Positions 10,807 to 63,564 of a stretch of 64,000 bases of DNA are shown in pieces (within the stretch, counting starts at the first letter, position 1; each line of letters starts with the position of its first letter). The notes under the pieces are model-generated. The model made no database searches. It was not told the DNA's origin and was given only the letters and a program-made list of their open reading frames with translations. A program made the translations under genes and the position numbers. Location of the stretch: positions 10,913 to 74,912 of the forward strand of contig CAVPJI010000014.1 in the NCBI GenBank assembly GCA_963705215.1, written 5' to 3'. This stretch comes from an uncultured Chloroflexia bacterium (lineage in GTDB: Bacteria > Chloroflexota > Limnocylindria > Limnocylindrales > CSP1-4).

Positions 10807-10819
10807 CCCGAGCGCGTCC

Positions 10820-10839
10820 CGTTGTAGAAACCTCCAACG
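10820..10839. promoter_or_regulatory. Candidate PucR/CdaR-type operator
   Basis: CGTTGTAG-AAAC-CTCCAACG inverted repeat between the regulator and the permease; TTGACC at 10869. Confidence 0.55.
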
Positions 10840-10973
10840 CTCGTGCGCCGAAGGCACTCCCCTGACAATTGACCCGTGCGGCGGGGAGTGGCGAGACTTG
10901 GAGCGCAGCGAGCAGCAGCTGCCCGGACTGCCGCGACCCTCACCACGACCATGTCAAGAAACGGGAGGGAGCA

Positions 10974-12074: not shown

Positions 12075-12141
12075 CCAGCTTTCCCGGTCACGGCAAATCC
12101 GGCGCACCGGTTCAACACCGCGCCAGGCACGGAGGTTACAG

Positions 12142-12747: not shown

Positions 12748-12753
12748 CCCGCG

Positions 12754-12780
12754 CCCGTGGGCGTAAGCCACGCCCACGGG
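12754..12780 (+). terminator. Hairpin after the cysteine hydrolase gene
   Basis: CCCGTGGGCGT-aagcc-ACGCCCACGGG perfect 11-bp stem; no U-tract. Confidence 0.5.
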
Positions 12781-12891
12781 GAGCAGGGACTCGGGAAGCC
12801 GCGGAGACCCTGCAGGACATTGATCCCGTTGAGAGACCAGTCAAGTCCCGTCTGGTTCTCGTCGGCTAGCTCAGAGAGGAGGAGGGCATCC

Positions 12892-25927: not shown

Positions 25928-26803
25928 TCAGAACGGGGTCGGGATGTAGTTCAGGGTCAGGTTCGGCTCCCTGCCCTTGCTGGACGCCTTGCGCTTGGGC
26001 AGCTCGATGTCGCGCGGCTCATCGGGCTCGTAGGGCACCCGGCTCAGCAGGTGGCTGATGATGTTGAGCCGGCCGCGCTTCTTGTCATCCGTCCGGGCGA
26101 TCCACCACGGCGCCCAGGGCGTGTCCGTCGCGGCGAACATCGCGTCCCGGGCCCGCGAGTAGTCGTCCCAGCGGCCATATGACTTGAGGTCCATGTCGGT
26201 CAGCTTCCAGGTCTTGCGCGGGTCGTGGATGCGCCCCTCGAGACGGCGCGTCTGCTCTTCGGGGCTGACCTCCAGCCAGTACTTGATGAGGATGATGCCG
26301 TTCTCCACCATGGCCTTCTCGACCGCCGGCACCTGCTCGAGGAACCGCTCTGTCTGCTCGGGCGTGCAGAAGCCCATGACCCGCTCGACTCCGGCGCGGT
26401 TGTACCAGCTCCGGTCGAAGATCACGACCTCGCCCGCGGCCGGGAAGTGCGTCATGTACCGCTGGACGTACATCTGCGACTTCTCGCGCTCGGTCGGGGC
26501 GGAGAGAGCGACAACCGTGAACACGCGCGGGCTGACCCGCTCGGTGATCCGCTTGATCGTGCCTCCCTTGCCGGCTGTGTCCCGACCCTCGAACACGATG
26601 CAGACCTTGGCGCCGGCCGCCTTCACCCATTCCTGCATCGCCACGAGCTCGCCGTGGAGACGGCGCATCTCGCGCTCGTAATCCTTGGTCGTCATCTTCG
26701 AGGAGGCCTCAGGCTGGGTCGCCGCGGGCTGGGTGGTCCCATCGCCCGGTTGGGCCTGGCCCTTCTCGAGCTTGCTGGCCTTCGTGTCCTTCTTCTTCAC
26801 CAC
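25928..26803 (-). CDS. ppk2: Polyphosphate kinase 2 (class I-like)
   Basis: FEGRDTAGKGG, FDRSWYNRAGVERVMGFC, DDKKRGRLN. Confidence 0.93.
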   Translation of the reverse strand: MVKKKDTKASKLEKGQAQPGDGTTQPAATQPEASSKMTTKDYEREMRRLHGELVAMQEWVKAAGAKVCIVFEGRDTAGKGGTIKRITERVSPRVFTVVALSAPTEREKSQMYVQRYMTHFPAAGEVVIFDRSWYNRAGVERVMGFCTPEQTERFLEQVPAVEKAMVENGIILIKYWLEVSPEEQTRRLEGRIHDPRKTWKLTDMDLKSYGRWDDYSRARDAMFAATDTPWAPWWIARTDDKKRGRLNIISHLLSRVPYEPDEPRDIELPKRKASSKGREPNLTLNYIPTPF

Positions 26804-26830
26804 GGATCTGATCCCTTCTGCCGGCGCTGA

Positions 26831-29599: not shown

Positions 29600-30588
29600 G
29601 CCTTCTTCCCTTTCCCGGCCTTCTTCTCGGCCTTCTTGCCCGCGGCCTCGGCCGCCGTCGCGATCTCGATCGGGTCGGGCTCAGCTCCCGGCGGCGCCTG
29701 GCCCTCGAGCTCGACCTTGGCGGCCTGGAGAGCCGCGCGTGCCTCCGGGCTCACCTTCGGGAACCTGGGGTCGATCTCGATCAGCGTGTGGGCGATGACG
29801 CCGGCGGCGGCGACTCGCGCGAACGGCTTGTCGTCGGCCGGGATGACGTACCAGGGAGCCCACGACGTGCTCGTCTTCGACAGCACGTCCGCGAACGCCT
29901 TCTGGTAGTCGTCCCAATAGGCGCGCTCCTTCACGTCGCTGGCGCTGAACTTCCAGTTCTTGTCCGGCTCGTCGATCCGGGCGAGGAACCGGCGGCGTTG
30001 CTCCTCCTTGCTCACGTTGAGGAAGAGCTTGACGATCCGGAAGCCCTGGTCGGTGAGGTAGCGCTCCCAGTCGTTGATCTCGCGGAAGCGGCGATTCCAG
30101 ACGTCGCCCCGCTTGGACGAGGGCGGCAACTTCTGGCCGGCAAGGATCTGCGGGTGGACCCGGACGACGAGGACCTCCTCGTAGTAGCTGCGGTTGAAGA
30201 TCCCGATGTTGCCGCGCTCCGGCAGCTTCTTCGCGTAGCGCCAGAGGTAGTCGTGGTCGAGGTCCTCGGGCGACGGGACCTTGAAGCTGCTGACCTGGAC
30301 GCCCTGCGGGTTGACCCCGCTCATGACGTGCCCGATCGTGCCGTCCTTGCCGGCCGCGTCCATCGCCTGGAAGACGACGAGAAGGCCATACGTGTCCTGG
30401 GCGGCCAGCCGCGTCTGGTAGTCCGCGAGGAGGTCGACCACGGCGGCAAGGATCTCCCTGGCCTCGGCCTTGGACTGCTTCCTCGTGCCGGCCGGATCGA
30501 AGTCGCGCGGCAGGCGGACCCGCCGCCCGGGCTCTACGCGGAATGGCTGGATGAACTCCTCGATCCGCTTGGGTCTGAGGTCGGCCAT
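29596..30588 (-). CDS. ppk2: Polyphosphate:nucleotide phosphotransferase, PPK2 class III-like
   Basis: FQAMDAAGKDG, SFKVPS, FNRSYYEEVLVVRVH, KNWKFS; ATGA overlap with the ATPase. Confidence 0.92.
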   Translation of the reverse strand: MADLRPKRIEEFIQPFRVEPGRRVRLPRDFDPAGTRKQSKAEAREILAAVVDLLADYQTRLAAQDTYGLLVVFQAMDAAGKDGTIGHVMSGVNPQGVQVSSFKVPSPEDLDHDYLWRYAKKLPERGNIGIFNRSYYEEVLVVRVHPQILAGQKLPPSSKRGDVWNRRFREINDWERYLTDQGFRIVKLFLNVSKEEQRRRFLARIDEPDKNWKFSASDVKERAYWDDYQKAFADVLSKTSTSWAPWYVIPADDKPFARVAAAGVIAHTLIEIDPRFPKVSPEARAALQAAKVELEGQAPPGAEPDPIEIATAAEAAGKKAEKKAGKGKKA

Positions 30589-36869: not shown

Positions 36870-37298
36870 GTGCTCATCGTCGACGCGAACGTCCTCCTGT
36901 ACGCCGTCAACACGGCCGCGCCGCGCCACGCCCCGGCGCGCTCATGGCTCGACGGTGCGTTGGCCGGACGAGAGCCGGTTGGGTTCGCCTGGACCGTGCT
37001 GCTCGCCTTCCTGCGTCTCACGACGCACCCGGCGGTCTTCCCGCGGCCACTGACGGTCGGGGAGGCGACGGAGATCGTCCGGGCCTGGCTCGCGCAGCCC
37101 GCGGCCATCGTGGTCGATCCGACGCCCCGGCATGCCGACCTGCTGGCGGGTCTGCTCGCCGAGGCCGGGACCGCAGCCAACCTTGTCGGCGACGCGCACC
37201 TCGCAGCGCTCGCCCTGGAACACGACGCCGTGCTTGTCTCCTTCGACGCCGACTTCGGACGCTTCGCCGGGCTGCGTCGAGAGACGCCTGGAACCTGA
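36870..37298 (+). CDS. vapC: VapC PIN-domain toxin
   Basis: LIVDANVLLYAVN...FLRLTTHP...NLVGDAHLAALALEH...SFDADFGRF. Confidence 0.92.
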   Translation: MLIVDANVLLYAVNTAAPRHAPARSWLDGALAGREPVGFAWTVLLAFLRLTTHPAVFPRPLTVGEATEIVRAWLAQPAAIVVDPTPRHADLLAGLLAEAGTAANLVGDAHLAALALEHDAVLVSFDADFGRFAGLRRETPGT

Positions 37299-37856: not shown

Positions 37857-38114
37857 ATGACAAAGCGGCTGCAGGTCCTTCTCGACGACGACGAGCTGGC
37901 GGAGATCCAGGCGGTCGCGCGGCGTCGCCACCAGACGACCGCGGCCTGGGTTCGCGATGCCCTTCGCGTAGCGCGCGACACGGCGAGCTACCCGGAGACC
38001 GGGCGCAAGCTCCACGTGATCCGCGAGGCCGTAAGCCACGCCTACCCCGCCGGCGATGTCGGCGACATGCTCGAGGAGATCGAGCGCGGCTACGGGGACG
38101 GGAACCCCGGATGA
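37857..38114 (+). CDS. vapB: RHH antitoxin
   Basis: [37 protein letters not shown]...[17 protein letters not shown]. Confidence 0.85.
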
Positions 38115-38506
38115 TCTTCGTCGATTCGAACATCCCGATGTATCTCGTCGGAGCCGACCTTCCGAACAAGGGCGCTGCGCGCACGCTCCTGGAGCGGGCG
38201 ATCACCGACGGCGAGATGCTCGTCACGGACGCCGAGGTGCTCCAGGAGATCCTCCATCGTTACGTGGCGATCGATCGCCGGGACGCGATCGAGCCCGCGT
38301 CCGCGGCCTTGCTCGGCGTCGTCGACGAGGTCTACCCGGTCGAACGGGCGGACGTCGAACGCGCCCGCCGGATCGTCCTCGGGACGAGGATGTCGGCCCG
38401 CGACGCGATCCACGTCGCGATCATGCGGCGGCGCGGGGTCGACCGGATCCTGACGTTCGACCGCGCCTTCGACGAGGTCGAGGGGATCTCGCGCGTCGGC
38501 GGGTAG
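38111..38506 (+). CDS. vapC: VapC PIN-domain toxin
   Basis: [11 protein letters not shown]...[10 protein letters not shown]...SARDAIH...TFDRAFD. Confidence 0.9.
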
Positions 38507-43781: not shown

Positions 43782-44900
43782 ATGAACGACACCACGCGGC
43801 ACGGCGGCCTGGACCTGGCGACGATCGTCGCCGCCCCCAAGGTGCTCCTGCACGACCACCTGGACGGCGGCCTGCGTCCGCGGACCGTGATCGAGCTCGC
43901 CCGCGAGGGCGGCTACGACGGCCTCCCCACGACCGATCCCGACGAGCTGTCCGCCTGGTTCCGGCGGGGCGCCGACCGCAAGAGCCTGGAGCTCTACCTC
44001 GCCGGGTTCGCCCACACCGTGGGCGTGATGCAGACGCCCGAGGCGCTCGAGCGGATCGCGGCGGAGTGCGCCGAGGATTTCGCGAACGACGGGATCGTCT
44101 ACGCCGAGGTCCGCTTCGCGCCGGAGCTCCACCTCGAGCGCGGGATGACGCTCGACGAGGTGGTCGAGGCGGTGCTCCGCGGCTTCCGGCGTGGCAGCGC
44201 GGGCCGCCCGCTCGAGATGCGCGCCCTCGTGACCGCGATGCGAACGGCCGCGCGGTCCCTGGAGATCGCCGAGCTGGCCGTCCGCCATCGCGACGAAGGC
44301 GTGGTGGGCTTCGACATCGCCGGCGCAGAGAAGGGCTATCCACCGAGCCGGCACCTCGACGCCTTCCACCTGATCGCCCACGAGAACTTCCACTTCACGA
44401 TCCACGCCGGCGAGGCCTTCGGGCTGCCGTCGATCTGGGAGGCGCTCCAGTGGTGCGGCGCCGAGCGGCTGGGCCACGGCGTGCGGATCGTGGACGACAT
44501 CGTGGTCGGCGACGACGGGCGCGTCGCGCTGGGCCGGCTCGCGGCCTATGTGCGTGACCGGCGAATCCCGCTGGAGATGTGCCCGACCTCGAACGTCCAC
44601 ACGGGCGCCGTCGCCTCGATCGAGGAGCACCCGATCGACCTCCTGCGTCGCCTCCGCTTCCGGGTCACGGTGAACACGGACAACCGCCTCATGAGCGGGG
44701 TCACGCTTTCGTCGGAGTTCGAGGCGCTCGCCCGGGCCTTCGGCCTGGACCTCGCCGAGATGCAGTGGCTGACGCTCAACGGCATGAAGAGCGCCTTCTG
44801 CTCGTTCGACCAGCGGCTGCGGGTCATCAACGAGCAGATCAAGCCGGGCTACGCCCGGCTCATGGCGCGGGCCTCGCAGGCGGACATGCTCGTCGGGTAG
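43782..44900 (+). CDS. add: Adenosine deaminase
   Basis: [51 protein letters not shown]. Confidence 0.92.
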
Positions 44901-46701: not shown

Positions 46702-47679
46702 CTAGCGCATCGTGAGGGCCATCACGGCCTTCTGGGCGTGGAGCCGGTTCTCCGCCTCGTCGTAGACGACCGAGTGCGGGCCGTCGATGACCGCATCTGC
46801 GACCTCGACGCCCCGGTCGGCGGGAAGCGGATGCATGTAGATGGCGTCCTCGGCCGCCATCCCGATCCGCCGCTCGTCGGCGATCCAGTCGGTGTGCTTC
46901 TTCGCGATCTCCGCGCCCTCGGTCTCGTCCTTCGCCGTGAGCATGGCGCCCCAGCTCTTGGCGTAGACCACGTCGACGCCGCGCAGGCCGGCATCGAAAT
47001 CGTCCATCAGCTCGAAGCTGCCGCCGGAGCGGCGGGCATTCTCGGCCGCCTGGTCGACGATGTCGGCTGGAAGCTTGAACTCCGGCGGGTGGACCAGCCG
47101 GACGTTCATCCCGTAGCGGGTGGTCAGGAGCGAGAGGTCGACGGGAACACTGATCGGCTTCTGGTAGCTGGCCGCGTACGCCCAGCTGATCGCAATGGTC
47201 CGGCCCCGCGGGTCGCCCTTCTTCTCGAAGATCGTCAGGAGGTCGGCCAGGGACTGGTGGGGATGGAAGAGGTCGCACTGCATGTTGAGGACGGGGACAC
47301 GGCTGGCGGCCGCCACCTCGCGGATGTAGGCGTTGCCGGCACCCCAGTCCACGTTGCGAATGGCGATGCCGTCGTTGTAGCGGCCCAGGATCTCCCCGAT
47401 CTCCTTGGGCGTGTCGCCGTGGGAGATCTGGGTGGTCCGGCTCTCGATGAACTGGGCGTGGCCGCCCAGCTGGGCCATCCCGGCCTCGAACGAGGCCCGG
47501 GTCCGGGTGGACGAGAAGAAGAAGAGCATGGCCAGGACGCGGTCCCGGAGGAGCGGGTGCGGGATCCCGAGGGCCCGCTCCCGCTTCAGCAGGGCAGCCA
47601 CCTCGAGGACGGAGTCGATCTCCTCCTTCGTCCACTCCTGGAGGCTGATGAGGTCGCGGCCGCGCAGGTCGGTCTGCAT
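46702..47679 (-). CDS. YgeW-like (knotted-type) carbamoyltransferase
   Basis: SSTRTR, HPHQ, SWAYAASYQKPISVP (YgeW-like loop), AKSWG, MHPLP, AENR. Confidence 0.8.
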   Translation of the reverse strand: MQTDLRGRDLISLQEWTKEEIDSVLEVAALLKRERALGIPHPLLRDRVLAMLFFFSSTRTRASFEAGMAQLGGHAQFIESRTTQISHGDTPKEIGEILGRYNDGIAIRNVDWGAGNAYIREVAAASRVPVLNMQCDLFHPHQSLADLLTIFEKKGDPRGRTIAISWAYAASYQKPISVPVDLSLLTTRYGMNVRLVHPPEFKLPADIVDQAAENARRSGGSFELMDDFDAGLRGVDVVYAKSWGAMLTAKDETEGAEIAKKHTDWIADERRIGMAAEDAIYMHPLPADRGVEVADAVIDGPHSVVYDEAENRLHAQKAVMALTMR

Positions 47680-47687
47680 GTCGGCGC

Positions 47688-48641
47688 CTACTCTGCCGCG
47701 CCGAGGATGAGCGCAAGGAGCCCCATCTTGAGCGCGACGCCGTTGAACGCCTCGGCCCAGTAGCGCTGGTGGCGGGTGGCGTCGACGTCCTCGGGCAGCT
47801 CGTCCATCCGCGGGAGCGAGTGGAGGATCATCGAGGAGCGCTTGGCCTTCTCGCGCAGGAGCTGGCGGGTGACGACGTACTCCGGAGGCGTGAGCCCCAT
47901 CTCACCGGCCCGCTCCACGCGCGAGGCCGTGTAGTCGGCCTGCACGACCGGCTCCATGTAGATGACGTCCGCCTCGCCGATCACGTCGCGGACGTCACCG
48001 GCCTCCTGGTAGTCCACGTTGAGCGCGTCGATCTCCGCCTTGAACTCCGGGAGCAGCGACATGTCGGGCGGGCCGACGACGATCGCCTTGGCGTCGAACT
48101 GCGAGAGGGCGTACAGGATCGAATGCATGGTCCGCATCCGCATGTCGCCCACGAGCAGCCAGGTCAGCCCGTCAAGGGTCCCCTTCTCCAGCAGCGTGGT
48201 GTAGAGGTCGGTCAGGACCTGGGTCGGGTGCTCGCCCCAGCCGTCGCCGCAGTTGATGACCGGCACGGACGCCCACTTCGCCGCCTCGTGCGGTGCGCCC
48301 TGCTGGAAGTGGCGGATCGCGATGACGTCCGCGTAGAACTCCAGCATGTGGAACGTGTCCTTGATCGACTCCTGGTAGAAGTCGCCGGCGCGGGTCATCT
48401 TCGAGTCGGAGAACCCGAGGACGTGCCCCCCGAGGCGATGCATGGCGGCCTCATGGGAGAGTCGCGTCCGCGTGCTGGGCTGGTAGAAGGCCGTCAGCAG
48501 GGTCTTGTGCTTCAGCAGGTCGGTGTTGCGACGGTCGCGCGCGAAGGGCCGCAGGTCGTCCGCGACCTGAAAGACCCTGAAGAACTCGTCCCGGCTGAAA
48601 TCCTTGAGGGACAGGATGTCCCGGCCCTGGAAGCTCCGCAT
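47688..48641 (-). CDS. ATCase-like carbamoyltransferase of unknown substrate
   Basis: QPSTRTRLS, NCGDGWGEHPTQ and HSLPR, but no KGE motif and no TRxQxER motif. Confidence 0.8.
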   Translation of the reverse strand: MRSFQGRDILSLKDFSRDEFFRVFQVADDLRPFARDRRNTDLLKHKTLLTAFYQPSTRTRLSHEAAMHRLGGHVLGFSDSKMTRAGDFYQESIKDTFHMLEFYADVIAIRHFQQGAPHEAAKWASVPVINCGDGWGEHPTQVLTDLYTTLLEKGTLDGLTWLLVGDMRMRTMHSILYALSQFDAKAIVVGPPDMSLLPEFKAEIDALNVDYQEAGDVRDVIGEADVIYMEPVVQADYTASRVERAGEMGLTPPEYVVTRQLLREKAKRSSMILHSLPRMDELPEDVDATRHQRYWAEAFNGVALKMGLLALILGAAE

Positions 48642-50155
48642 CAGATTCCTCCGCTGGTTGCGTGGTGGGAGTGCAGGCGCCGGTGCGCCGCACGGGTGAC
48701 GGGCTGATCGCCGGGCGCCGGCGTGGGCGGGCGCCGTACGGCGCCGGTGAAGAGGACCGCGACGTTCTCGTCGGGGCGGATCGCGCGCGTTCGGACCAGG
48801 TCCAGGAGGCCGGCAAGGCCCGCCGACCCGGTGTGATCGACGTCGATGCCGGTCGTGGCGCGGGCCAGCGCGTTCGCCTCCTCGAGCGTGGGCTCGGAGG
48901 TGACGAGCGGCCCGCCGCCGCTCTCGAGGATGCCGGCGAGGCAGGCTCGCCAATCGTACGTCTCATCGTCGATGATGCCGTGCGCGACGCTGCGCGGCTC
49001 CTGCTCCCAGGGCCACATGAAGGCCGAGCGGTGGCGGCCGGCGTCCGCGAGGACCTCGTCGGCCGGCTCGCCTGCCGCGACGCGCGCTCGCACGCGCTCG
49101 AAGGCACGGGCCAGCGGGTGGACGGTCGCCGGCTGCACGGCGTGAATCCGGGGCAGCGCGGCTCCCTCGTACCGTAAGCCGGCGATCACGGAAGACAGCA
49201 GTGCCCCACCGCCGACCTGGACCACCACCCGGTCCAGGCGAGCGGGGCCGCCGGGCGCCGCGACCGCGGCGGCCAGCTCCCAGCCCAGCGTCTCCCCGCC
49301 CTCGATCGCGAGGCCGTTGAGGTTGCCCTGGCAGGTGAACGGGACCGCGCCGGTCTCGACAGCGCGCAGGAGCGCGTGGTACGTCGGGATCGCCCGTGGC
49401 GCCCGGCTCGCGCTCGCACACGGTGCAGGCGGCGCCGAGGGCCTTCAGGCGCTCGACCACCACGGGATCAGCGTCGGGCGGGATGAAGACATCGAGGTGG
49501 CGGTCCGCGGCGCGGGCGACGACCGCAGCCGCGAGGGCGGCGTTGCCGCAGGAGGCGATCGCGAGAGGCGCCCGCTCCACGGCGGGCTGCCCCGCCGTCC
49601 GTTCCCCGGCGGGCTGCCCCGCTGCGGGCTCAGCGGCCGATGTGCCGCCGGCGATCGATCGTTGGCGCGCGTCCTCCACCGCGAGCTCCAGGAGTGTCCC
49701 GAAGAGGTGGCGGGCCTTGTGCGAGCCCGACACGTTGCCGGTCTCGTCCTTGACCCAGACCCCGCCGGCCGCGGAGAAGCCCAGGGCGTCGGAGAGCGGA
49801 CCGCTCCGCATGAATGGCGTGATCCCGAACCCATGGCCGTCGACCAGGGCGACCGCCGTGTCGAGCCGCTGCACGAGGCCGACGTACTCGGCGTCGCTCC
49901 AGCCCACCGCCCGGGCCCGGTTGTACGCATGGAACCGCGTTCGCCAGCGGACGTACGGGCTGGGCGCCCCCGTGTCCTCGGCAAGCGCTTCGTGCCCGGC
50001 GACCGTCACCCGGACCAGCACGTGGTCGACGTCATCCCCCGGCCGGGCCGCCGGGCAGGCGAAGGCGAGCGGTGCCTCGTCCGGGACGTGATGCCCGCAG
50101 CCGGCGCAGACGAGCGCCGTCGGCGGCGCGGCACCGCCCGCCGGCCGTGCTTCTG

Positions 50156-50159
<4 letters not shown>
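48641..50159 (-). CDS. Threonine-synthase-like PLP fold-II enzyme; +1 frameshift near 49387 (probable sequencing error)
   Basis: N-terminal [29 protein letters not shown]; after the shift TYHALL...FTCQG...VQVGGGAL...GSAGLAG...LFTG. Confidence 0.8.
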
Positions 50160-51649
<1,490 letters not shown>

Positions 51650-51831
51650 CCTTGCTCCTCCGGGGCGACGTCGGCCGCCCATGTACGCGTCGTATCCTTC
51701 GGGTCGACCCGGAAGGCAACTTCGGGCCGGACGGCACACCCCGCAGCGGGGCGGCGCCGCCACAATTCTGTCACCGACGGCGAGCGTCGGAAGGGCCAGT
51801 TGGTCCCCGCCTGCAGGACTGGGGTCGCACG

Positions 51832-54492
51832 ATGGACTTCATTCTGAACGGCCGGCCGGTCTCGACGGAGGCCGAACCGGGCACCAGTCTGCTGGAGCTG
51901 CTCCGTGAGCGCTTCGGGCTGCGCTCGATGAAGGACGGCTGCGCACCGGAGGGATCGTGCGGGGCGTGCACCGTGCTGGTGGACGGCCGCCCGGTCGTCT
52001 CGTGCGCCCGCGACGCGGCGGAGATCGCGGGTCGCGACGTCGTGACCCTCGAGGGCCTCCCGGCCGACGCGCGGTCGGCCTGGGCCGCGGCGTTCATCTC
52101 GTCCGGCGCCAGCCAGTGCGGATTCTGCTCGCCCGGGATCGTCATGAAGTCGGAGGGACTCCTCACGCGCGACCCGGCGCCATCCCGCGAGGCGATCGCC
52201 CGGGCCCTGGCCGGCAACCTCTGCCGCTGCACCGGCTACGTGAAGGTGATCGACGCGATCGAGGCCGTCGCGGCGGCCCGGCGCGGCGAGCGCGACCTCC
52301 CGGCCACCCCGGCCGGCGGCGGTGTCGGCGCCCGTGCCGACCGGATCGGCGCCCGGGAGATGGCTCTCGGCGAGCAGCCGTTCGTGGCCGACATGTCCGC
52401 GCCCGGCATGCTTCACGCCGCCCTGCGCCTCAGCGACCACCCACGGGCCGTCGTCCTCCGGATCGACACCGCGCACGCCGCCGCGGCCCCCGGGGTCGTC
52501 GCGATCGTCACCGCCGCGGATGTCCCCGGCGAGCGCGTCCAGGGCCTGATCGCCCGCGACTGGCCGGTCTTCGTGGCCGAGGGCGAGACGACCCGCTACG
52601 TCGGCGACGTCCTCGCCGCCGTTGCCGCCCGGACCCGCCGCGAGGCCCGGGCCGCCGCCGCGCTGATCGAGGTCGAGTACAAGACCCTCGACCCCGTCGG
52701 CGACCCGTTCGCAGCCCTCGAGCCGGCCGCCCCGCCCGTCCACGCCGCCGGCAACCTCCTCGAATCCTCGGTCGTCCGGCGCGGTGATGCTGCGGCGGCC
52801 CTCGCGACCGCCGCCCACGTCGTTCGCGAGCGCTTCACCACGAGCCCGATCGACCACGCCTTCCTCGAGCCCGAGGCCTGCCTGGCGGTGCCGGGCGACG
52901 GCAGCCCCGGCGCCCCCGTCCTCCACCTCTTCTCGCAGGGCCAGGGTGCCTGGGATGACCGCCGCCAGGTCGCCTCGCTCCTCGCCCTCCCCGAGACCGA
53001 CGTCCGCGTCACCCAGGTCGCCACCGGCGGGGCCTTCGGCGGCAAGGAGGACCTCACGGTCCAGGGGCAGGCCGCGCTCCTCACCCGGGTCACCGGGCGC
53101 CCCGTCCTCCTCGCCCTGTCGCGCGCGGAGAGCCTCCGGCTCCACCCGAAGCGCCACGCGATCACCCTCGACTACGAAGTCGGCTGCGACGCCGAGGGTC
53201 GCCTCGTCGCGGTCCGGGCCCGGATCGTCGGCGACACCGGCGCGTACGCCAGCGTCGGGGCGAAGGTCCTCGAGCGGGCCGCCGGCCACGCCTGCGGCGC
53301 CTACCGCGTCCCGAACGTCGACGTCGAGGCCCGCACCGTCTACACGAACAACCCGCCGGCCGGCGCCTTCCGCGGCTTCGGCGTCCCCCAGGCGACGTTC
53401 GCGATGGACGGCTGCCTCGACCGTCTCGCCGAGCGGGTCGGCCTCGACGGCTGGGAGATCCGTTGGCGGAACGCCTGCCGGACCGGTGACCGTTTCGGGT
53501 CCGGCCAGCGGCTGGGAGCCGGTGTCGGCCTCGAGAAGACGCTCCTCGCCGTCCGCGACGCCTACCGCGACGCCCGCGCCCGCGGTGCGGCCGCTGGGAT
53601 CGCCTGCGCGGCCAAGAACGTCGGGATCGGCAACGGCATGGTGGAGCGGGGACGGGCCCTCCTCCGCGTCGAGCCGGACGCGAGCATCACGCTCTGGCAC
53701 TCGTGGACGGAGATGGGCCAGGGCGTCCACACGGTCTTTGCCCAGGTCGTCGCCGAGGAAACCGGCGTGGACGTCGCCACGGTCCGGGTCCGCGTCGACA
53801 CGGAGCGCGAGCTCGACACCGGCGAGACGACGGCCTCGCGGGCGACGACGCTCGGCGGCCAGGCGGTCGCCGACGCGGCCCGCAAGCTGCGCTCGGCGAT
53901 CGACGCCCTGCCGCCCGGCACCGACCTCGAGACCCTCGCCGGGCAGGAGTTCGGCGGCGAGTTCGTCGTCGACTGGACGACGAAGCTCGACCCGGACATC
54001 GAGGACCCGGTCACCCACCTCGCCTACGGCTGGGCGACCCAGGTCGTCATCCTCGACGACGAAGGCCGCCTGGCGCGGGTCGTCGCGGCCCACGACGTGG
54101 GTCGGGCCATGAACCCGACGCTTCTCGAGGGCCAGGTCGAGGGCGGGGTCCACATGGGCCTCGGCCTCGCGCTCACCGAGGCGTTCGTGACCGATCGCGG
54201 CGTGCCGCTCACGACAACCCTGAAGTCGCAGGGGATCATCCCCGCCGCGGGGATGCCGCCGGTCGAGGTCATCGTCGTCGAGGAGCACCAGCCAGAGGGC
54301 CCGTACGGGGCGAAGGGCGCCGGCGAAGCGGTCCTCGTGCCAACGCCGGCCGCCGTTGCCGGCGCGCTCCAGGCCTTCGACGGTCGCTGGCGGACCGCGC
54401 TCCCGATGCGGGACTCCGCGGCTGCGCGAGCGGCCCTGCCCCGGGTGGACAGCCTGCCGCGGGCCGGCTCGACCGCGGGAGGGCCGCCCTGA
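51832..54492 (+). CDS. xdhD: XdhD-like / selenium-dependent xanthine dehydrogenase-type Mo hydroxylase (2Fe-2S fused to Mo-binding domain)
   Basis: [30 protein letters not shown]; [29 protein letters not shown]. Confidence 0.8.
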
Positions 54493-55514
54493 TGTCGGCG
54501 GTCACGCCCGGGCTCGTCTGCGCCCATCACCACCTCTACTCGGCGCTCGCCCGGGGGATGCCGGCACCGCCGAAGGTCGCCACGAGCTTCCAGGAGATCC
54601 TGGAGCAGGTCTGGTGGCGCCTCGACACGGCGCTCGACCTCGAGATGATCCGCTGGTCGGCGATGCTCGGTGCCCTCGAGGCGCTCGAGAACGGCACGAC
54701 GGCGATCGTCGACCACCACGAGTCACCCAACGCCATCGAGGGCAGCCTGGACGTGATCGCCGAGGCGTGCGCCGCCGTCGGGGTCCGTGCGCTGCTCGCT
54801 TACGGGGTCACGGACCGCCACGGCGCCGACGGCGCCCGGCGCGGCCTCGCCGAGAACGAGCGCTTCATCCGGGCCGGTGGTCGGGGCCTCGTGGGGATCC
54901 ATGCCGCCTTCACCTGCTCCGACGAGTCCCTGCGCGCCGCCGCCGGGCTGGCCGCAGATCTTGGCGTCGGGGTCCACGTCCACGTGTGCGAGGGGGTCGG
55001 CGACGTCGACGCGCCTCGCCGGCTCGCTGGTCTGACCCGCGGCAACTGGCTCATGGCCCACTGCGTCCACCTGCCCACCGATCACGAGCTGCGGGGGACG
55101 ATCCTCCACAACCCGATGTCGAACCTGAACAACGCAGTCGGCTACGCCAACCCGGCGCGGTTCACGAACCCGGTCGCCCTCGGCACCGACGGGATCGGCG
55201 GCAACGTCCTCGAGGCGTTCCGGCTGGCCTACGTCCTGCAGCGCTCGGTCGACGTCACCTGCGGGCCGGACACGGCGTGGTCGTGGCTCGAGAACGGTTG
55301 GAACCTGGTCCCGGAGGCGCGCGCCGACGAGGTCGAGTGGTCCTACGACCCGATGGACCCGTGGCAGGTCGCCTTCACCCCCGGAATCATGCCGCGGAAG
55401 GTCACGATCGGCGGCGAGGTCGTCTTCGCCGATGGGAGGCCGACCCGGGTGGACCCCGACGAGGTCCGGGCGAAGGCCCGGGAGCAGGCCGCCCGCCTGC
55501 ACGCCCGCCTCTGA
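54492..55514 (+). CDS. ssnA: SsnA-like amidohydrolase (short form)
   Basis: PGLVCAHHHLYSALARG, WWRLD, GTTAIVDHHESP, GIHAAFT, HVHVCE, HNPMSN, LGTDG; TGATG coupling to xdhD. Confidence 0.8.
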   Translation: MSAVTPGLVCAHHHLYSALARGMPAPPKVATSFQEILEQVWWRLDTALDLEMIRWSAMLGALEALENGTTAIVDHHESPNAIEGSLDVIAEACAAVGVRALLAYGVTDRHGADGARRGLAENERFIRAGGRGLVGIHAAFTCSDESLRAAAGLAADLGVGVHVHVCEGVGDVDAPRRLAGLTRGNWLMAHCVHLPTDHELRGTILHNPMSNLNNAVGYANPARFTNPVALGTDGIGGNVLEAFRLAYVLQRSVDVTCGPDTAWSWLENGWNLVPEARADEVEWSYDPMDPWQVAFTPGIMPRKVTIGGEVVFADGRPTRVDPDEVRAKAREQAARLHARL

Positions 55515-55540
55515 CGGCCGCGGGGCCGGATCGAGCGCCG

Positions 55541-55888
55541 CTACAGGGCCAGGTGCAGGCGGAGCGCCTCATCGATCTGAGCCATGATTGCGCGCGGGAC
55601 CACGCCGAGACGGGCGCCCACGCGCGCAACGTCCACGGACCGGACCTGCTCGGACTGGGCCTTCGAGTCTCGCGGAAGGCCCGTACCGGATGCCGGGAGC
55701 ATGGTCTGGAACGGATAGATCCGCTCGACGTTCGACGTCACCGGCACGACCGTGACCACGCCGCGGCCGAGCCGATCGGCGCTCTCGTTGGCGCTGTCGT
55801 TGCTGACGATGACCGCCGGCCGCCGCTTGTTCGACTCCGACCCGCGCGCAGGATCGAGATCGACTTCGTAGATCTCACCGCGGCGCAT
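55541..55888 (-). CDS. mazF: MazF/PemK endoribonuclease toxin (MazF9-like)
   Basis: MRRGEIYEVDLDPARGSESNKRRPAVIVSND...VVPVTSN..IYPFQ...SKAQSEQVRS. Confidence 0.92.
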   Translation of the reverse strand: MRRGEIYEVDLDPARGSESNKRRPAVIVSNDSANESADRLGRGVVTVVPVTSNVERIYPFQTMLPASGTGLPRDSKAQSEQVRSVDVARVGARLGVVPRAIMAQIDEALRLHLAL

Positions 55889-56124
55889 CAGGAGGGGACC
55901 CCTTCGGTCAGCCCATCTCCGACGGTCGACTCCCACATCCGCCCCTCGCCATCGTCGGTCGACCACTCCTCCCACGCGCTCTCGTACGCAGCGCTCAGCT
56001 CCGCCGCGCGCAGCAGGTGGACGGCCTTCTGCAGGGCGGCCGAGCGCGACAGCAGGCCCTGTTCCTTCGTGTAGTCGTCGAGGAACTGGACGTCGGCGCC
56101 CGGGAGGCTGACACTCACCTTCAT
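55888..56124 (-). CDS. mazE: MazE antitoxin (RHH, MazE9-like)
   Basis: MKVSVSLPGADVQFLDDY...SRSAALQKAV...AYESAWEEW...WESTVGDGL; TGATG overlap with mazF. Confidence 0.88.
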   Translation of the reverse strand: MKVSVSLPGADVQFLDDYTKEQGLLSRSAALQKAVHLLRAAELSAAYESAWEEWSTDDGEGRMWESTVGDGLTEGVPS

Positions 56125-56131
56125 ACCGTGG

Positions 56132-56173
56132 ATGCTACCCCAGATCGTTCTGGGTAGCAAGAACCCTGCTACC
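56132..56173 (-). promoter_or_regulatory. mazEF operator (three TGCTACC boxes) and -10 element
   Basis: TGCTACC at 56133, inverted copy at 56153-56159, direct copy at 56167; minus-strand TAGCAT 7 nt before the ATG. Confidence 0.7.
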
Positions 56174-56295
56174 AGCGACAGCTGCGACCCCGCACCACGA
56201 ACGGACCGAGACGTGACGGCCGGCCTATCCTGAAGCGGAGCCGGCCGGTGCGCGCCCGACCCGGCGTCGCGTCCGACCTCACGAGGGAGCACCCG

Positions 56296-59727
<3,432 letters not shown>

Positions 59728-59818
59728 CCCGGATCGGCGGCCGGGGCGCGGATCGCGCGCCGAAGCACGGGTCGCGCCCGACCCGGTCACGGTGGGACGC
59801 TTGCCGGCGTTCGGCCGC

Positions 59819-61234
59819 CTACCCGGCCGCGTCGAGGACCATGCGCCGGAGCACCCGGGCCGTGGCCGACCGCCGGTACGCGGCGGTCGAGCGCAGGCCA
59901 TCCCGCGGGTGAATGTCCAGGAGCACGGCCGTGGCCGCCCGGTCCGCCACGTCGGCCGAAGGGACCGCGCCCTCCAGCACCGCCTCGGCGCTCGGGGTCC
60001 GGATCGGCACCTCCGTGATCGTCCCGACCGCGACGCGGACGTCGCGCCACGCCGGCGACCCGGGATCCTGCCGCCACGCGACCGCCAGCGCAACCTTGGA
60101 GAGCGCGAGCGCCCGGCGCGTGCCGATCTTCCGATAGCGCAGCTGCCGGCCTCCGCCGACCGGGAACTCCAGCCGGAGCAGCAGCTCGCCCGGCTGGAGC
60201 GCCGTCCGCCGGTAGCCGATGAAGAACGACGCGGCGGGGATCGCCCGCTCGCCGCCCGGCCCGCCGACCACCATCACGGCCTCGGCCGCCAGCATCAGCG
60301 GCAGGCTGTCACCGGCCGGCGACGCGTTCACGACGTTGCCGCCCAGGGTTGCCATGTTCTGGAGCTGCGTGGCCCCGAACACCGCCGACAGCTCGGCGAT
60401 GGCCGGCAGGTGGTCTGCGACGAGCGGCGACCGGCGCAGGTCCGTGTAGGTCGCCGTGGCGCCGATCACGAGCCGATCGCCGTCGACCCGGATCCCGCGC
60501 AGCTCGTCGATCCCGGTCAGGTCCAGGAGCCCCGCGGCGGCGGCGCCGTCGCCCGCGAGCTCGACCATGATGTCCGTGCCGCCCGCGATCGGCCGCCAGG
60601 TGCCCTCGGCGAGAAGCCCGTACGCCTCCGCGAGCGTGGTCGGGCGCACGAAGGCGGGCCCGACGCGGACGTCCGACCCCGGCTCGACGTTGGGCCGGGT
60701 CGGTGGACCGGGCAGCTCACGCGGCACGTGCGGCAGGCCGCCCGGCACCTCGCGCGGCGCCGTCGTGGCCGCCATCGCGATCGCGTCGATGACCTTCATG
60801 TACCCGGTGCACCGGCACAGGTTGCCGGCGATCACCTCGCGGATGGCGGCGTCCGTCGGCTCCGCGCCGGAGTCCAGGAATGCCCGGGCCGACATCAGGA
60901 TGCCGGGCGTGCAGATGCCGCACTGCACGCCACCCGAGTCCACGAAGGCGGCCTGGACCGGGTCGAGCCGCCCGTCCTCGGCGAGCCCCTCGACGGTGCG
61001 GACGTCGCGACCTTCCACCTGGCCGACCGGGACGAGGCAGCTCAGGACCGGCGTCCCGTCAACCAGGACCGTGCAGGCGCCGCACTCTCCCTCGCCGCAG
61101 CCCTCCTTGGTGCCGACGAGGCCGAGGTCGATCCGGAGGGCGTCGAGGAGTCGCTCACCGCCGGCTCCGCCGACCTCGACCGGATCCCCATTGACCGTGA
61201 AGCGGGTCGCCCGGGTGGGCGTGGTGGTCGTCAC
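59819..61234 (-). CDS. Xanthine dehydrogenase-family small (2x 2Fe-2S) and medium (FAD) subunit fusion
   Basis: [29 protein letters not shown], then AGGTD and TLGGNVVNASPAGD. Confidence 0.88.
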   Translation of the reverse strand: MTTTTPTRATRFTVNGDPVEVGGAGGERLLDALRIDLGLVGTKEGCGEGECGACTVLVDGTPVLSCLVPVGQVEGRDVRTVEGLAEDGRLDPVQAAFVDSGGVQCGICTPGILMSARAFLDSGAEPTDAAIREVIAGNLCRCTGYMKVIDAIAMAATTAPREVPGGLPHVPRELPGPPTRPNVEPGSDVRVGPAFVRPTTLAEAYGLLAEGTWRPIAGGTDIMVELAGDGAAAAGLLDLTGIDELRGIRVDGDRLVIGATATYTDLRRSPLVADHLPAIAELSAVFGATQLQNMATLGGNVVNASPAGDSLPLMLAAEAVMVVGGPGGERAIPAASFFIGYRRTALQPGELLLRLEFPVGGGRQLRYRKIGTRRALALSKVALAVAWRQDPGSPAWRDVRVAVGTITEVPIRTPSAEAVLEGAVPSADVADRAATAVLLDIHPRDGLRSTAAYRRSATARVLRRMVLDAAG

Positions 61235-63564
61235 GACCGGGCCTCCTCTCCGTCGCGGTCGGCCGCGTCGAGCGCCGCGAGGATCCGCTCGGGCGTGGCG
61301 GGCAGCTCGTTGATCCAGACACCGGTGGCATCGTGGATGGCGGCGACGACCGCCGGCGCCACGACGTCCATCGGCAGCTCGCCGATCCCCTTGGCGCCGT
61401 GCGGCTCGTTCGCGAACGGGTTCTCCACCAGGACGGCCGTGATCTTCGGCGCATCGAGCGAGGTGGGGATCAGGTACTTCGAGAGCCGGTCGTTGAGGAA
61501 CCGGCCGTCCTTGAGCTTCATCTCCTCGATGGTGGCGTAGCCGACCGCCTGCAGCGAGCCGCCCTCCACCTGCCCGGCGGCCATCAGGGGGTTGATCACC
61601 GTGCCGCAGTCGTCCGCGGAGACGACGTGCTTGACGGCCACCTCGCCGGTGTCGAGGTCAACCTCGACCTCGGCCGTGGCGGCCGCCCAGGAGAACGCCG
61701 GGTAGGCGTCGCCGACGTAGGTGGCGTCGTCCCAGGTGATGTCCGGGTAGCCGGTGAACTGCTCGTCGAAGCGGAGAGCGCCGTGGGTCCGGGCGACATC
61801 GCCGTAGACCGCCGCGAACGGCCCGGGGGCACGCTCCTCGACCGCGGCCTTGAGCCGGTCGGCCGCCCTGGCCACGAGGCCGCCGACGACCATCGTGGTG
61901 CGCGAGGCGACGGTCGGGCCGCTGTTGGGGACGACCGAGGTGTCCTGGCGCACGACATCCACGTCCTCGAACGGGATCCCGAGCCGGTCCGCCGCGATCT
62001 GGGCGAACACGGTCCGCATGCCCTGGCCCATCTCGGTCTGGTCGGAGAGGACGCGGACGCGCCCGTCCGCCGTGAGCTCCACCGCGGCGATGCTGGCCAG
62101 GTACTTCTCGCCGCCGCCGGTGAAGCCGGCGCCGTGCCAGCCCATGGCGACCCCGATCCCGGGCGCGCTGCGCGGCCTCCCGGCCGCGCGATCCACGCGG
62201 CGCGCCGCCGCGAAGGCCGTCCGGCGCGCCTCGAAGTCGCTGACCTCGGTCGCCGCCGCGAGCGTCTCCCGGGCCGAGACGCTGTCGCGCAGCACCTGCT
62301 GCGTCGGCGTCAGATCGCCGAGCTGGTACGCCCAGCGCGCCCGGAGCTCCGCCGGCGAAACGTCGAGCGCCTCCGCGATTCGGTTGACGTGCATCTCCGC
62401 GGCGAACTCGGTCTGGGGAGCGCCAAAGCCGCGGAAGGCGCCGGTGGGCGGCGTGTGCGTCTGCACCGCACGGGAGCGGATCCGCACGTTCGGGCAGGCA
62501 TACGGGCCGGCCGAATGGAGCGTCCCGCGCGAGAGCACCACCGACGAGAGGGTCGCGTAGGCGCCGCCGTCGAACGTGATGTCGATGTCCTGGGCGACCA
62601 GCCGCCCGTCGCGCGTGACGCCGGTGCGATGGGTGACCACCGCCGGATGGCGCTTCGTGGAGACGGAGATGTCCTCGTGGCGGTCGTAGATCAGGCGGAC
62701 CGGCCGACCGACCGCGAGGGCGAGCATCGCGGCGTGGATGGCGAGCCCCGACGGGAACTCCTCCTTGCCGCCGAAGGCGCCGCCCGTGTCCTCCTGGACC
62801 ACCACGCAGTGCTCGGCGTCGAGGCCGAGCGCCCGCTTCATGGCGGCGTGCACGTAGTACGGGCACTGCAGCGAGCCGTGGACCGTCACGCCGCCGTCCG
62901 GCCGCGGCACCGCGATCATGCACTGCGTCTCGATGTAGAGCTGCTCCTGGTGACCGACCCGGTAGGTCCCCTCGATGACCTGGTCCGCCTGGGCGAACCC
63001 TGCCTCGAGGTCGCCTCGGGCGATGTGGTAGTCGGTGAAGACGTGGTCGGACGCGAGCATGTCCGTGACGGCCGGGAGCGGCTCGGTGCGGAGCCGGATG
63101 TGATCGCGCGCGGCGTGCGCCAGGGCAAGCGTGGGTGCCGCGACCAGGGCGACCGGCTCGCCGAAATGGCAGATCTCGTCCGCGGCGAGGACCGGCTGGT
63201 CGTCCTTCATGAGGTGGATGACGTTCTCGCCGGGCACGTCCGCGGCCGTCAGGACGACGACCCGGCTCCAGTCGAAGGCGGGGTCGCGCTCGATCCCGAG
63301 CAGGCGGGCGTGCGCCTCGGTCGACCGAACGGTGGTCCCGTGCCATGCCCCGGGTACCACGAAGTCGTCGGTGTACCGGGTGGCGCCGATCAGCTTGGGA
63401 ACGGCGTCCACGCGGGGCACGGACCGCGGGTCGGCGGCCGGATCGGGGATCCGCCAGGCCGGTGACGCCTCGCGAGGTGCGGCCGCCGGAGGCGGGGGCG
63501 CAACCGAAGGCGCGGTAGGGGCAGGTGTCGCGTGGGGGGTCCGGACCGGCGCTCGCGTCGTCAT
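61231..63564 (-). CDS. Xanthine dehydrogenase-family molybdopterin-binding large subunit
   Basis: [55 protein letters not shown]. Confidence 0.92.
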   Translation of the reverse strand: MTTRAPVRTPHATPAPTAPSVAPPPPAAAPREASPAWRIPDPAADPRSVPRVDAVPKLIGATRYTDDFVVPGAWHGTTVRSTEAHARLLGIERDPAFDWSRVVVLTAADVPGENVIHLMKDDQPVLAADEICHFGEPVALVAAPTLALAHAARDHIRLRTEPLPAVTDMLASDHVFTDYHIARGDLEAGFAQADQVIEGTYRVGHQEQLYIETQCMIAVPRPDGGVTVHGSLQCPYYVHAAMKRALGLDAEHCVVVQEDTGGAFGGKEEFPSGLAIHAAMLALAVGRPVRLIYDRHEDISVSTKRHPAVVTHRTGVTRDGRLVAQDIDITFDGGAYATLSSVVLSRGTLHSAGPYACPNVRIRSRAVQTHTPPTGAFRGFGAPQTEFAAEMHVNRIAEALDVSPAELRARWAYQLGDLTPTQQVLRDSVSARETLAAATEVSDFEARRTAFAAARRVDRAAGRPRSAPGIGVAMGWHGAGFTGGGEKYLASIAAVELTADGRVRVLSDQTEMGQGMRTVFAQIAADRLGIPFEDVDVVRQDTSVVPNSGPTVASRTTMVVGGLVARAADRLKAAVEERAPGPFAAVYGDVARTHGALRFDEQFTGYPDITWDDATYVGDAYPAFSWAAATAEVEVDLDTGEVAVKHVVSADDCGTVINPLMAAGQVEGGSLQAVGYATIEEMKLKDGRFLNDRLSKYLIPTSLDAPKITAVLVENPFANEPHGAKGIGELPMDVVAPAVVAAIHDATGVWINELPATPERILAALDAADRDGEEARS

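Follow-up and report, generated by a model that had tools for sequence, protein, structure and literature searches.

A probable gene cluster for reductive urate breakdown with a non-orthologous lower branch in an uncultured Chloroflexota bacterium

Introduction

Can the reductive breakdown of urate, as known from gut anaerobes, proceed in a bacterium in which the genes for the second half of the route have been exchanged for members of other families? This question is raised by a group of genes (positions 46702-63564) in a stretch of 64,000 nucleotides from an uncultured Chloroflexia bacterium (GenBank assembly GCA_963705215.1, contig CAVPJI010000014.1, here called C14); the whole of this stretch is referred to as the window. 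The 2,8-dioxopurine pathway of Escherichia coli and Clostridium sporogenes comprises XdhD-YgfM or XdhAC (2,8-dioxopurine dehydrogenase, DOPDH), YgfK, SsnA, HyuA, YgeW, YqeA, YgeY as well as YgeX. It was elucidated only in 2025 and has been described as a selenium-requiring trait of gut anaerobes (Liu et al., bioRxiv 10.1101/2025.04.24.650524; Percudani commentary, PMC12990295). Li et al. (PMC12507026) defined the steps from urate to pyruvate and reported SsnA in Chloroflexota and Actinomycetota, as well as a variant with an F420-dependent enzyme in Chloroflexota. According to Liu et al., YqeBC and SelD occur in all of their urate-degrading strains and the pathway seems to be selected in the animal gut, and the Percudani commentary regards the pathway as restricted to obligate or facultative anaerobes and counts the order in which the ureido groups are cleaved among the open questions. 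What is said here and below about these three sources refers to the available parts of their texts.

Judged from its sequence, the group of genes described here is probably (with a probability of about 0.7) a working cluster for reductive urate breakdown with a non-orthologous lower branch. An undescribed lower branch was already proposed in an earlier note on the window, which was made from the letters and their open reading frames (ORFs); the proposal is now supported by comparative genomics, from which we infer the chemistry, including the reactions of two pyridoxal-phosphate (PLP) enzymes.

Genome, gene calls and searches

The genome assembly (2.54 Mb in 28 contigs) is 81% complete, a caveat that goes with every whole-genome absence given below. 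Since the G+C content of the window is about 70%, false frames crowd raw ORF lists; genes were called from the G+C content at third codon positions and with a codon model for which the genome had served as training set. Families were scored with Pfam and NCBIfam profiles, and direct comparisons were made by tblastn with E. coli K-12 proteins. In a scan over one genome per species, the second PLP enzyme (PLP2) had relatives at 59-87% identity in at least 597 genomes. Locus counts refer to the best 80 of these at least 597 PLP2 loci with 10-kb flanks, compared by tblastn with proteins of the window, of relatives and of E. coli, each interval being assigned to its best query. The genes of the cluster, followed by one neighbour, are:

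46702-47679, minus strand: short YgeW-like carbamoyltransferase with the ornithine carbamoyltransferase (OTC) fold, 325 amino acids (aa) (Pfam OTCace_N, OTCace)
47688-48641, minus strand: PyrB-like carbamoyltransferase, 317 aa (TIGR00670)
48641 to about 50155, minus strand: first PLP enzyme (PLP1), similar to threonine synthase, serine racemase and threonine deaminase and rich in Cys in an N-terminal segment (PALP halves in two frames)
50156-51649, minus strand: PLP2, with a CysK/CBS-like core and N- and C-terminal extensions, 497 aa (PALP)
51650-51831, no strand: intergenic region between the divergent lower and upper operons (from gene calls)
51832-54492, plus strand: fused 2Fe-2S and Mo hydroxylase (TIGR03311; Fer2_2, Ald_Xan_dh_C, MoCoBD_1/2)
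54492-55514, plus strand: short SsnA-like amidohydrolase, 340 aa (NF005540)
55541-55888, minus strand: MazF/PemK-like toxin (PemK_toxin, 99.8 bits)
55888-56124, minus strand: putative antitoxin, a small ORF upstream of the toxin with no Pfam match
56248-59727, plus strand: YgfK-type flavin/Fe-S reductase, 1159 aa (TIGR03315)
59819-61234, minus strand: fused 2Fe-2S and FAD subunit of the xanthine dehydrogenase (XDH) family (Fer2, Fer2_2, FAD_binding_5, CO_deh_flav_C)
61231-63564, minus strand: Mo-binding subunit of the XDH family, with a start possibly at 63420 (MoCoBD_1/2, gene call)
43782-44900, plus strand: adenosine deaminase (A_deaminase, 361 bits)

Gene calls and family scores thus place all genes named in the earlier note between 46702 and 63564. 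Its inventory lacked the MazF/antitoxin pair (55541-56124) and the split frame of PLP1, and the PyrB-like gene starts near 48641, not at 48953.

The upper branch

The first enzyme of the divergent upper operon passes the equivalog cut-off of TIGR03311 (930 bits vs 830), and scores 231 bits on TIGR03313, which we take to be the model of E. coli XdhD; it is 26% identical to XdhD itself. The gene that had been called xdhD-like belongs to the TIGR03311 class. Its fused Fe-S and Mo layout without an adjoining FAD subunit is shared with the DOPDH of Clostridium, as that enzyme is described in the available text of Liu et al. (bioRxiv 10.1101/2025.04.24.650524). The YgfK-type reductase is the best match in the genome to E. 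coli YgfK, with 36% identity over 1075 residues, and reaches 825.3 bits on TIGR03315 against a cut-off of 835.3.

In the SsnA-like protein, which opens directly with its HxH motif, some 55 residues at the N-terminal end of the profile are missing; this distinguishes it from the SsnA of the E. coli and Clostridium pathway. It matches positions 56-340 of NF005540 (255 bits vs a cut-off of 444) and is 32% identical to residues 54-438 of E. coli SsnA. The same short protein is found in the related loci L010, L013 and L031 and in genome G092, each time alongside YgfK. Among the environmental loci examined, all five with YgfK have a short form of 318-341 aa (window 54492-55514; L010:6053-7078; L013:8917-9900; L031:19568-20524; L095:12669-13688), and loci with UacX-like or F420 reductases have full-length forms (442-461 aa); E. 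coli has a full-length SsnA together with YgfK.

The type of reductase differs among the relatives, being either YgfK, a DHO_dh plus Fer4 protein like UacX of Clostridium difficile, or an F420 luciferase-like protein. Such a modular upper branch with SsnA as common marker is also what the available text of Li et al. (PMC12507026) conveys for the C. difficile UacX/UacY and Chloroflexota F420 luciferase-like variants; unlike the Chloroflexota variant described there, the lineage of the window uses YgfK.

The XDH-like enzyme encoded next to the reductase probably makes urate from xanthine or hypoxanthine, to judge from its family. Its scores remain below the curated cut-offs, both for the Fe-S and FAD subunit (TIGR02963, 306 bits vs 467) and for the Mo subunit (pucD, 506 vs 784; xdhB, 383 vs 850). 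The adenosine deaminase gene is syntenic in L010, L053 and G092, where the copies are 88-90% identical. The clustering of a Mo hydroxylase, a YgfK-type reductase and an SsnA-like protein, the presence of a YgeW-related transferase and the purine-catabolic setting are all features that the cluster has in common with the E. coli and Clostridium pathway.

Canonical genes sought across the genome

In contrast to that pathway, the cluster lacks HyuA, and YgeY, YgeX, carbamate kinase and YqeB/YqeC are lacking as well. As the earlier note had it, hyuA, ygeY, canonical ygeX, carbamate kinase and yqeB/yqeC are absent from the window. In the genome, too, ygeY, ygeX, arcC, yqeB and yqeC gave no match above cut-off, and the occurrence of canonical ygeY and ygeX elsewhere, which the earlier note had named as an argument against a new lower branch, was not observed; of hyuA and selD, also listed there for a genome check, selD is present on C17, and a hydantoinase that could supply HyuA lies on contig C24. 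The best TIGR03526 (YgeY) match scored 81 bits (cut-off 321.5) on C9, and tblastn with E. coli YgeY gave a weak 24% match on another contig. For YgeX, the best TIGR03528 match in the genome, on a contig other than that of the window, scored 23 bits (cut-off 532), with no tblastn match of E. coli YgeX at E 1e-5. For carbamate kinase, the best TIGR00746 match in the whole assembly scored 32 bits, and the kinase from a relative's cluster found no match. A yqeB gene was likewise not found in any of five cluster-carrying relatives, three of which are 95% complete.

Contig C24 carries the sole hydantoinase/dihydropyrimidinase of the genome (TIGR02033, 573 bits; identity to E. coli HyuA, 41%), in a setting that, by gene content, is one of pyrimidine degradation. 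At this locus (L090, C24:19859-28461), the place expected for a dihydropyrimidine dehydrogenase is taken by an F420-type luciferase-like oxidoreductase (TIGR03842, 442 bits), whose neighbours are this dihydropyrimidinase and a CN-hydrolase, together with an NCS1 permease, an aldehyde dehydrogenase and a class-III aminotransferase. The selD gene on C17 adjoins selA and a formate-dehydrogenase-like gene that is read as two ORFs, which points to the use of selenocysteine rather than to the selenium-cofactor trait. At this locus (L091, C17:16787-30700), the Fe4S4 part of the formate-dehydrogenase-like gene is followed by its molybdopterin part, an arrangement compatible with a selenocysteine codon in frame.

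A marker of the oxidative urate route, OHCU decarboxylase, had no match in the 81%-complete genome. Subunit I of a haem-copper oxidase is encoded (545 bits), and by its gene content this high-GC host is capable of aerobic respiration. With this oxidase, and with its records from sediment, freshwater and wetland runs and not from the gut, it differs from the hosts of the E. coli and Clostridium pathway.

The PLP2-PLP1 pair

Instead of YgeX, the lower operon contains two other PLP enzymes and, in a further departure from the E. coli and Clostridium pathway, a PyrB-derived transferase. PLP1 and PLP2 share with YgeX/DpaL the fold-type II PLP architecture and the place in the cluster. They differ from it in that neither matches TIGR03528, in that they form a conserved pair, and in their folds, which are of the threonine-synthase/serine-racemase and cysteine-synthase kinds. 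In its structure model (pLDDT 91.5), PLP2 resembles cysteine synthases, CBS and beta-cyanoalanine synthase, with a TM of about 0.8 on target, and has additional N- and C-terminal helices as compared to cysteine-synthase folds; among PDB sequences only distant cysteine synthases were found, with a best score of 59 bits. The mean column identity of PLP2 over 46 sequences is 68%, with invariant catalytic Lys, Asn-loop and Gly-rich loop. A model of PLP1, built from the intact homologue of L010 (pLDDT 88.3), has the fold of threonine synthase, serine racemase and threonine deaminases. The predicted complex of PLP2 and PLP1 scored 0.00, a value that speaks neither for nor against binding. The names obtained from a protein atlas are all generic, such as 'PLP-dependent lyase/thiolase', 'pyridoxal-phosphate dependent enzyme' and 'pyridoxal-5-phosphate-dependent protein subunit beta'.

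In 63 of the 80 loci, PLP2 is followed on its strand immediately downstream by PLP1. A YgeX-like gene (35-39% identical to E. coli YgeX) is found within about 7 kb of PLP2 in five loci that lack PLP1, and in one of these (L023) it directly adjoins PLP2. As we read it, PLP1 seems to correspond to YgeX, and PLP2 seems to be a partner of its own that stays constant. PLP2 is the signature gene of this lower-branch variant.

The two carbamoyltransferases

E. coli YgeW finds its best genomic match in the product of 46702-47679 (35% identity), which scores 180 bits on the YgeW profile NF005538 against a cut-off of 453 and stays below the cut-off of all NCBIfam OTC models. In an alignment it shares the YgeW-specific motifs and lacks the YgeW insertions. 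The PyrB-like enzyme, read from its true start near 48641, just passes TIGR00670 (240.3 bits vs 236.95). It has kept the carbamoyl-phosphate motifs and carries an 8-residue acidic insert; E. coli R229 is replaced by Pro and the 80s loop with K84 is different, two residues that presumably bind the aspartate side-chain carboxylate. In a maximum-likelihood tree of 31 transferases, which came with a long-branch warning and has a single OTC outgroup, the PyrB-like clade groups with the PyrB of E. coli and that of the genome itself (support 100/100), and the short form branches as the sister of YgeW (100/98), with E. coli ArgI falling outside of the two.

The composition of the 80 loci suggests two slots, which are filled in different ways. 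True YgeW together with an M20 hydrolase was found in eight loci and the short YgeW-like form together with the PyrB-like enzyme in five, to which L053 can be added, where the PyrB-like gene is fragmented and fell below the coverage filter, being seen as a 94% match and in pieces. The mixed combinations, short YgeW-like with M20 and YgeW with PyrB-like, occurred in one locus each; PyrB-like alone was found in five loci and M20 alone in one. In none of the 80 loci does YgeW accompany the short form, or M20 the PyrB-like enzyme. Thus, the PyrB-derived transferase alternates with the YgeY-type M20 hydrolase, and the short YgeW-like enzyme with true YgeW.

Pfam and NCBIfam scans of nine representative loci revealed two corresponding styles of the lower branch. 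In the first, found in Proteobacteria and Acidobacteriota, true YgeW goes with a YgeY-like M20 hydrolase of about 515 aa and often a carbamate kinase; YgeW scores are 599-653 bits in L017 and L013, and 377 bits, below the 453 cut-off, in the Thermoanaerobaculia locus L031. In the second, found in Chloroflexota and Actinomycetota, the PyrB-like and short YgeW-like genes are often followed by a carbamate kinase. The kinase comes after the transferases in L010, L033, L038 and L046. In the arginine deiminase pathway, catabolic OTC phosphorolyses a ureido group to carbamoyl phosphate, from which carbamate kinase makes ATP. The position of the kinase directly after both transferases in the relatives resembles this system; the proposed substrates are ureido-diaminopropionates instead of citrulline, two transferases would act in series, and the kinase is missing here.

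Families of this kind also invite another explanation, namely that the lower operon is biosynthetic or housekeeping, serving arginine, pyrimidine, cysteine, diaminopropionate or a ureido-amino-acid natural product, and merely neighbours purine genes. The transferases do belong to the OTC and aspartate carbamoyltransferase families, one of them just reaching the aspartate carbamoyltransferase cut-off, PLP2 is CysK-like with weak similarity to the SbnA family, and no canonical argF was found in the 81%-complete assembly. The pair also stands without the purine genes in about 25 Acidimicrobiia loci, amid housekeeping genes for ClpP, a ComM-like protein, DprA, an integrase and a sigma factor. We nevertheless consider this explanation very unlikely. 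Synteny with the hydroxylase and SsnA is kept across phyla, a catabolic carbamate kinase stands beside the transferases in relatives, and the transferases alternate with YgeW and the YgeY-type hydrolase. A separate housekeeping PyrB is encoded on C9 next to a dihydroorotase-like sequence, and the presumed aspartate side-chain residues are lost in the PyrB-like enzyme of the cluster. Relatives G001, G002 and G004 have a true OTC (404-432 bits) besides the cluster copy (about 240 bits), which is why the idea that the short OTC-like gene is the ArgF of the organism was set aside, and the pair is linked to TIGR03311 at genome level as well, as described below. The neighbours of the pair in Acidimicrobiia were also considered as a functional lead and, after an analysis of neighbours over all 80 loci, rejected, their conservation reflecting shared ancestry and not function.

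Relatives and co-occurrence

The lower-branch variant is widespread across phyla and not peculiar to this bacterium. The two closest relatives, with 86-87% identity in PLP2, are by title uncultured Chloroflexia metagenome-assembled genomes (MAGs), and the whole cluster is kept in L010, L053 and G092, the last of which belongs to the same genus. The hydroxylase (at least 50% identity) is present in 25 of the 80 loci and SsnA in 27, with either of them in 28. These 28 loci include 27 with PLP1, one with a YgeX-like gene and six with a dihydropyrimidinase; guanine or 8-oxoguanine deaminases are also encoded in related loci. By record title, loci with the pair and the hydroxylase or SsnA come from Chloroflexota, Actinomycetota, Acidobacteriota, Gemmatimonadota, Alpha- and Betaproteobacteria and Myxococcota, with Rhodoplanes azumiensis KCTC 15603 as a cultured carrier.

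In a sample of 201 genomes of the phylum, PLP2 (E 1e-50 or better) was present in 30. SsnA passed the NF005540 cut-off in 28 and reached at least 400 bits in 41, with the short form in four more. An SsnA-class gene, counted from the 400-bit line that we set ourselves and with the short form included, is present in 27 of the 30 PLP2-positive genomes vs 18 of the 171 PLP2-negative ones, one of these 18 (G149) being unpublished; with the curated cut-off, PLP2 occurs in 20 of the 28 SsnA genomes. YgeX above cut-off was found in none of the 201 genomes, with two near misses. Of 25 genomes without a hydroxylase within 10 kb of PLP2, the 18 with the PLP2-PLP1 pair had a full-length TIGR03311 protein (at least 771 bits) elsewhere in 15 cases, and the seven whose PLP2 lacks PLP1 had one in no case. 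A lack of co-occurrence of the extra genes with the upper-branch genes, the second argument that the earlier note had foreseen against its proposal, is thus not what was found, with PLP1 in 27 of 28 hydroxylase/SsnA loci and SsnA in 27 of 30 PLP2-positive genomes.

In Figure 3 of Li et al. (PMC12507026), as far as the available text goes, any neighbouring PF00291 gene counts as 'YgeX' and any PF00185 gene as 'YgeW', so that the PLP pair and the PyrB-derived transferase were not separated from the canonical enzymes. A full-text search, outside of which the supplements of the primary papers lie, yielded no publication that describes the PLP pair or the PyrB-like transferase as part of this pathway.

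A proposed pathway and the evidence against it

The route that we envisage has upper-branch steps that follow from homology and lower-branch steps that follow from gene alternation. The XDH-like enzyme would supply urate, which the TIGR03311 hydroxylase, acting like DOPDH, would reduce to 2,8-dioxopurine. YgfK would reduce the ring of this compound and the short SsnA would open it to ureidomethyl-hydantoin, for the opening of which the dihydropyrimidinase of the C24 pyrimidine cluster is probably borrowed. From the resulting 2,3-diureidopropionate the short YgeW-like and PyrB-derived transferases would each take one ureido group by phosphorolysis to carbamoyl phosphate, the latter enzyme filling the place that the hydrolase YgeY has in the canonical pathway. 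The translationally linked PLP2-PLP1 pair would fill the place of YgeX and turn the resulting 2,3-diaminopropionate, or else an amino acid with one ureido group, into pyruvate and ammonia, with PLP1 as the putative beta-eliminating or racemising member and PLP2 as its CysK-type partner.

It is tempting to generalise this to a distinct edition of the 2,8-dioxopurine pathway in environmental bacteria of at least five phyla, many of them oxygen-respiring, that operates without YqeB/YqeC. An obligate PLP pair would replace YgeX, the PyrB-derived transferase would replace YgeY in Chloroflexota and Actinomycetota, both ureido groups would be saved as carbamoyl phosphate, and PLP2 would catalyze a reaction without E. 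coli counterpart. In this general form the proposal is tentative, and we would give it somewhat less than an even chance. If it is true, up to two ATP could be gained per urate where carbamate kinase is present.

Several observations weigh against the reading of the window as a urate cluster with a new lower branch. Identity to the E. coli enzymes is just 26-36%, and SsnA, YgfK and the YgeW-like enzyme are all below their NCBIfam cut-offs. The cluster has no hydantoinase, the C24 copy belonging to the pyrimidine cluster, and as there is no carbamate kinase, the energy gain of two phosphorolyses would be unrealised here unless the gene lies in the missing 19% of the genome. PLP1 is split in the assembled sequence, as discussed in the next section. 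PLP2 also occurs in operons that lack the hydroxylase and instead contain a YgeX-like gene and two genes of carbamoyl-amidohydrolase type, and the Acidimicrobiia loci mentioned above have to be added. Locus L035 carries both PLP1 and a YgeX-like gene, so that the parallel between the two is not strict and PLP1 is no simple stand-in for YgeX. Finally, related genomes are not independent, and the co-occurrence counts are therefore descriptive and overstate the support.

Two of the hydroxylase-less operons are L016:1103-8997 and L026:3552-11452, from gamma- and alphaproteobacterial MAGs, which contain, in this order, a TRAP transporter, a YgeX-like gene, an M20 gene, a CN-hydrolase gene and PLP2. 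The operon may represent a pathway for an imported ureido amino acid. No TIGR03311-class hydroxylase was found in the L026 genome; the L016 genome was not searched.

The low identity to characterised enzymes, the truncation of SsnA and the sub-threshold scores would also fit an upper branch that acts on another N-heterocycle (another oxopurine, a pterin or a pyrimidine analogue), in a ring-reduction pathway that delivers a different amino acid to the PLP pair. The capacity of the organism to respire oxygen agrees with this, as does the lack of YqeB/YqeC genes here and in five relatives, since according to the available text of Liu et al. (bioRxiv 10.1101/2025.04.24.650524) these genes are present in every urate degrader examined. 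Against it stand the TIGR03311 equivalog score of the hydroxylase and the surrounding purine genes, which are those for adenosine deaminase and the XDH-like enzyme, with a PucR regulator and a nucleoside hydrolase elsewhere in the window. Moreover, the genes in related loci of this family include those for true YgeW (599-653 bits), a hydrolase like YgeY, dihydropyrimidinase and guanine or 8-oxoguanine deaminases, and Li et al. (PMC12507026) have, in the available text, already placed SsnA clusters of Chloroflexota and Actinomycetota in the urate pathway family. We therefore regard another heterocycle as an unlikely substrate, and urate as the probable one.

The cluster and its relatives suggest that the pathway is common in soil and sediment bacteria, which would dispense with the selenium-maturation genes. 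The two alternations bear on the question of which ureido group is attacked by each enzyme, and the PLP2-PLP1 pair offers a testable substrate range for two highly conserved enzymes. A hydrolysis-free lower branch could also serve the engineering of urate-degrading strains with a better energy yield.

Features local to the window

Is the cluster still intact in this bacterium? Compared with L010 and L053, PLP1 is split by a single additional base near 49385-49389, and a toxin-antitoxin module separates ssnA from ygfK, which abut without MazEF in G092. The carbamate kinase that follows the transferases in L010 and L033 is absent here and from the whole assembly. Together this could mean that the cluster is decaying, with PLP1 as a pseudogene, a broken ssnA-ygfK unit and a lost kinase, which we consider improbable. 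Four studies contributed four public runs (metagenomes labelled as sediment, freshwater, wetland and sediment) whose contigs were compared over 48700-50100; runs with less than half of the sampled sequence words were left aside, also with regard to habitat. The contigs that bridge the PLP1 site all lack the extra base, three of them with 0-3 other differences over 214-291 bases. Thus, an intact form of PLP1 exists, and the contigs are no proof that the source strain lacks the insertion. PLP1 is also a single full-length match in G092. Other split genes, namely a DUF6544 gene in the window and the transferase genes of the related MAG G002, make an indel error of the assembly the likelier reading, and the frameshift in PLP1 is probably such an error. 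A real pseudogene was rejected as the main reading after the comparison with the public-run contigs. The DUF6544 gene is split into 6621-7040 and 7025-7459 (plus strand), which match profile positions 3-87 and 95-220.

The remaining genes of the cluster are open and have a strong coding-frame signal, and the toxin-antitoxin module, on the opposite strand, is flanked by two complete genes. MazF had no match in any of the 80 related loci; the pair is an insertion between ssnA and ygfK that stands outside the pathway. With respect to the kinase, G092 (95% complete) also has none adjoining its short YgeW-like gene, with all other genes of the cluster intact, which suggests that loss of the cluster-linked copy is common to the genus. 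It has a carbamate kinase on another contig, and at the kinase position an ORF with a methyltransferase-like motif, as judged by eye. In the window, 103 bp separate the short YgeW-like transferase gene from the next gene.

Other genes of the window

Further purine-related genes lie about 35 kb from the cluster. They extend from a gene for a PucR-family regulator of purine catabolism, which is followed by transporter-like, isochorismatase-family and metallo-beta-lactamase-fold genes (9304-13869, plus strand), to a nucleoside hydrolase gene (19425-20900, minus strand). Besides the MazF pair, the 64-kb window has five PIN-domain (VapC-like) genes (1419-2056, 5291-5683, 7759-8154, 36870-37298 and 38111-38506), one of which is adjoined by an Rv0623-like antitoxin gene. 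At 25928-30588 (minus strand), a P-type cation ATPase gene is located between two polyphosphate kinase 2 genes, and a gene for a CHAD-domain protein and one for a SulP transporter adjoin them.

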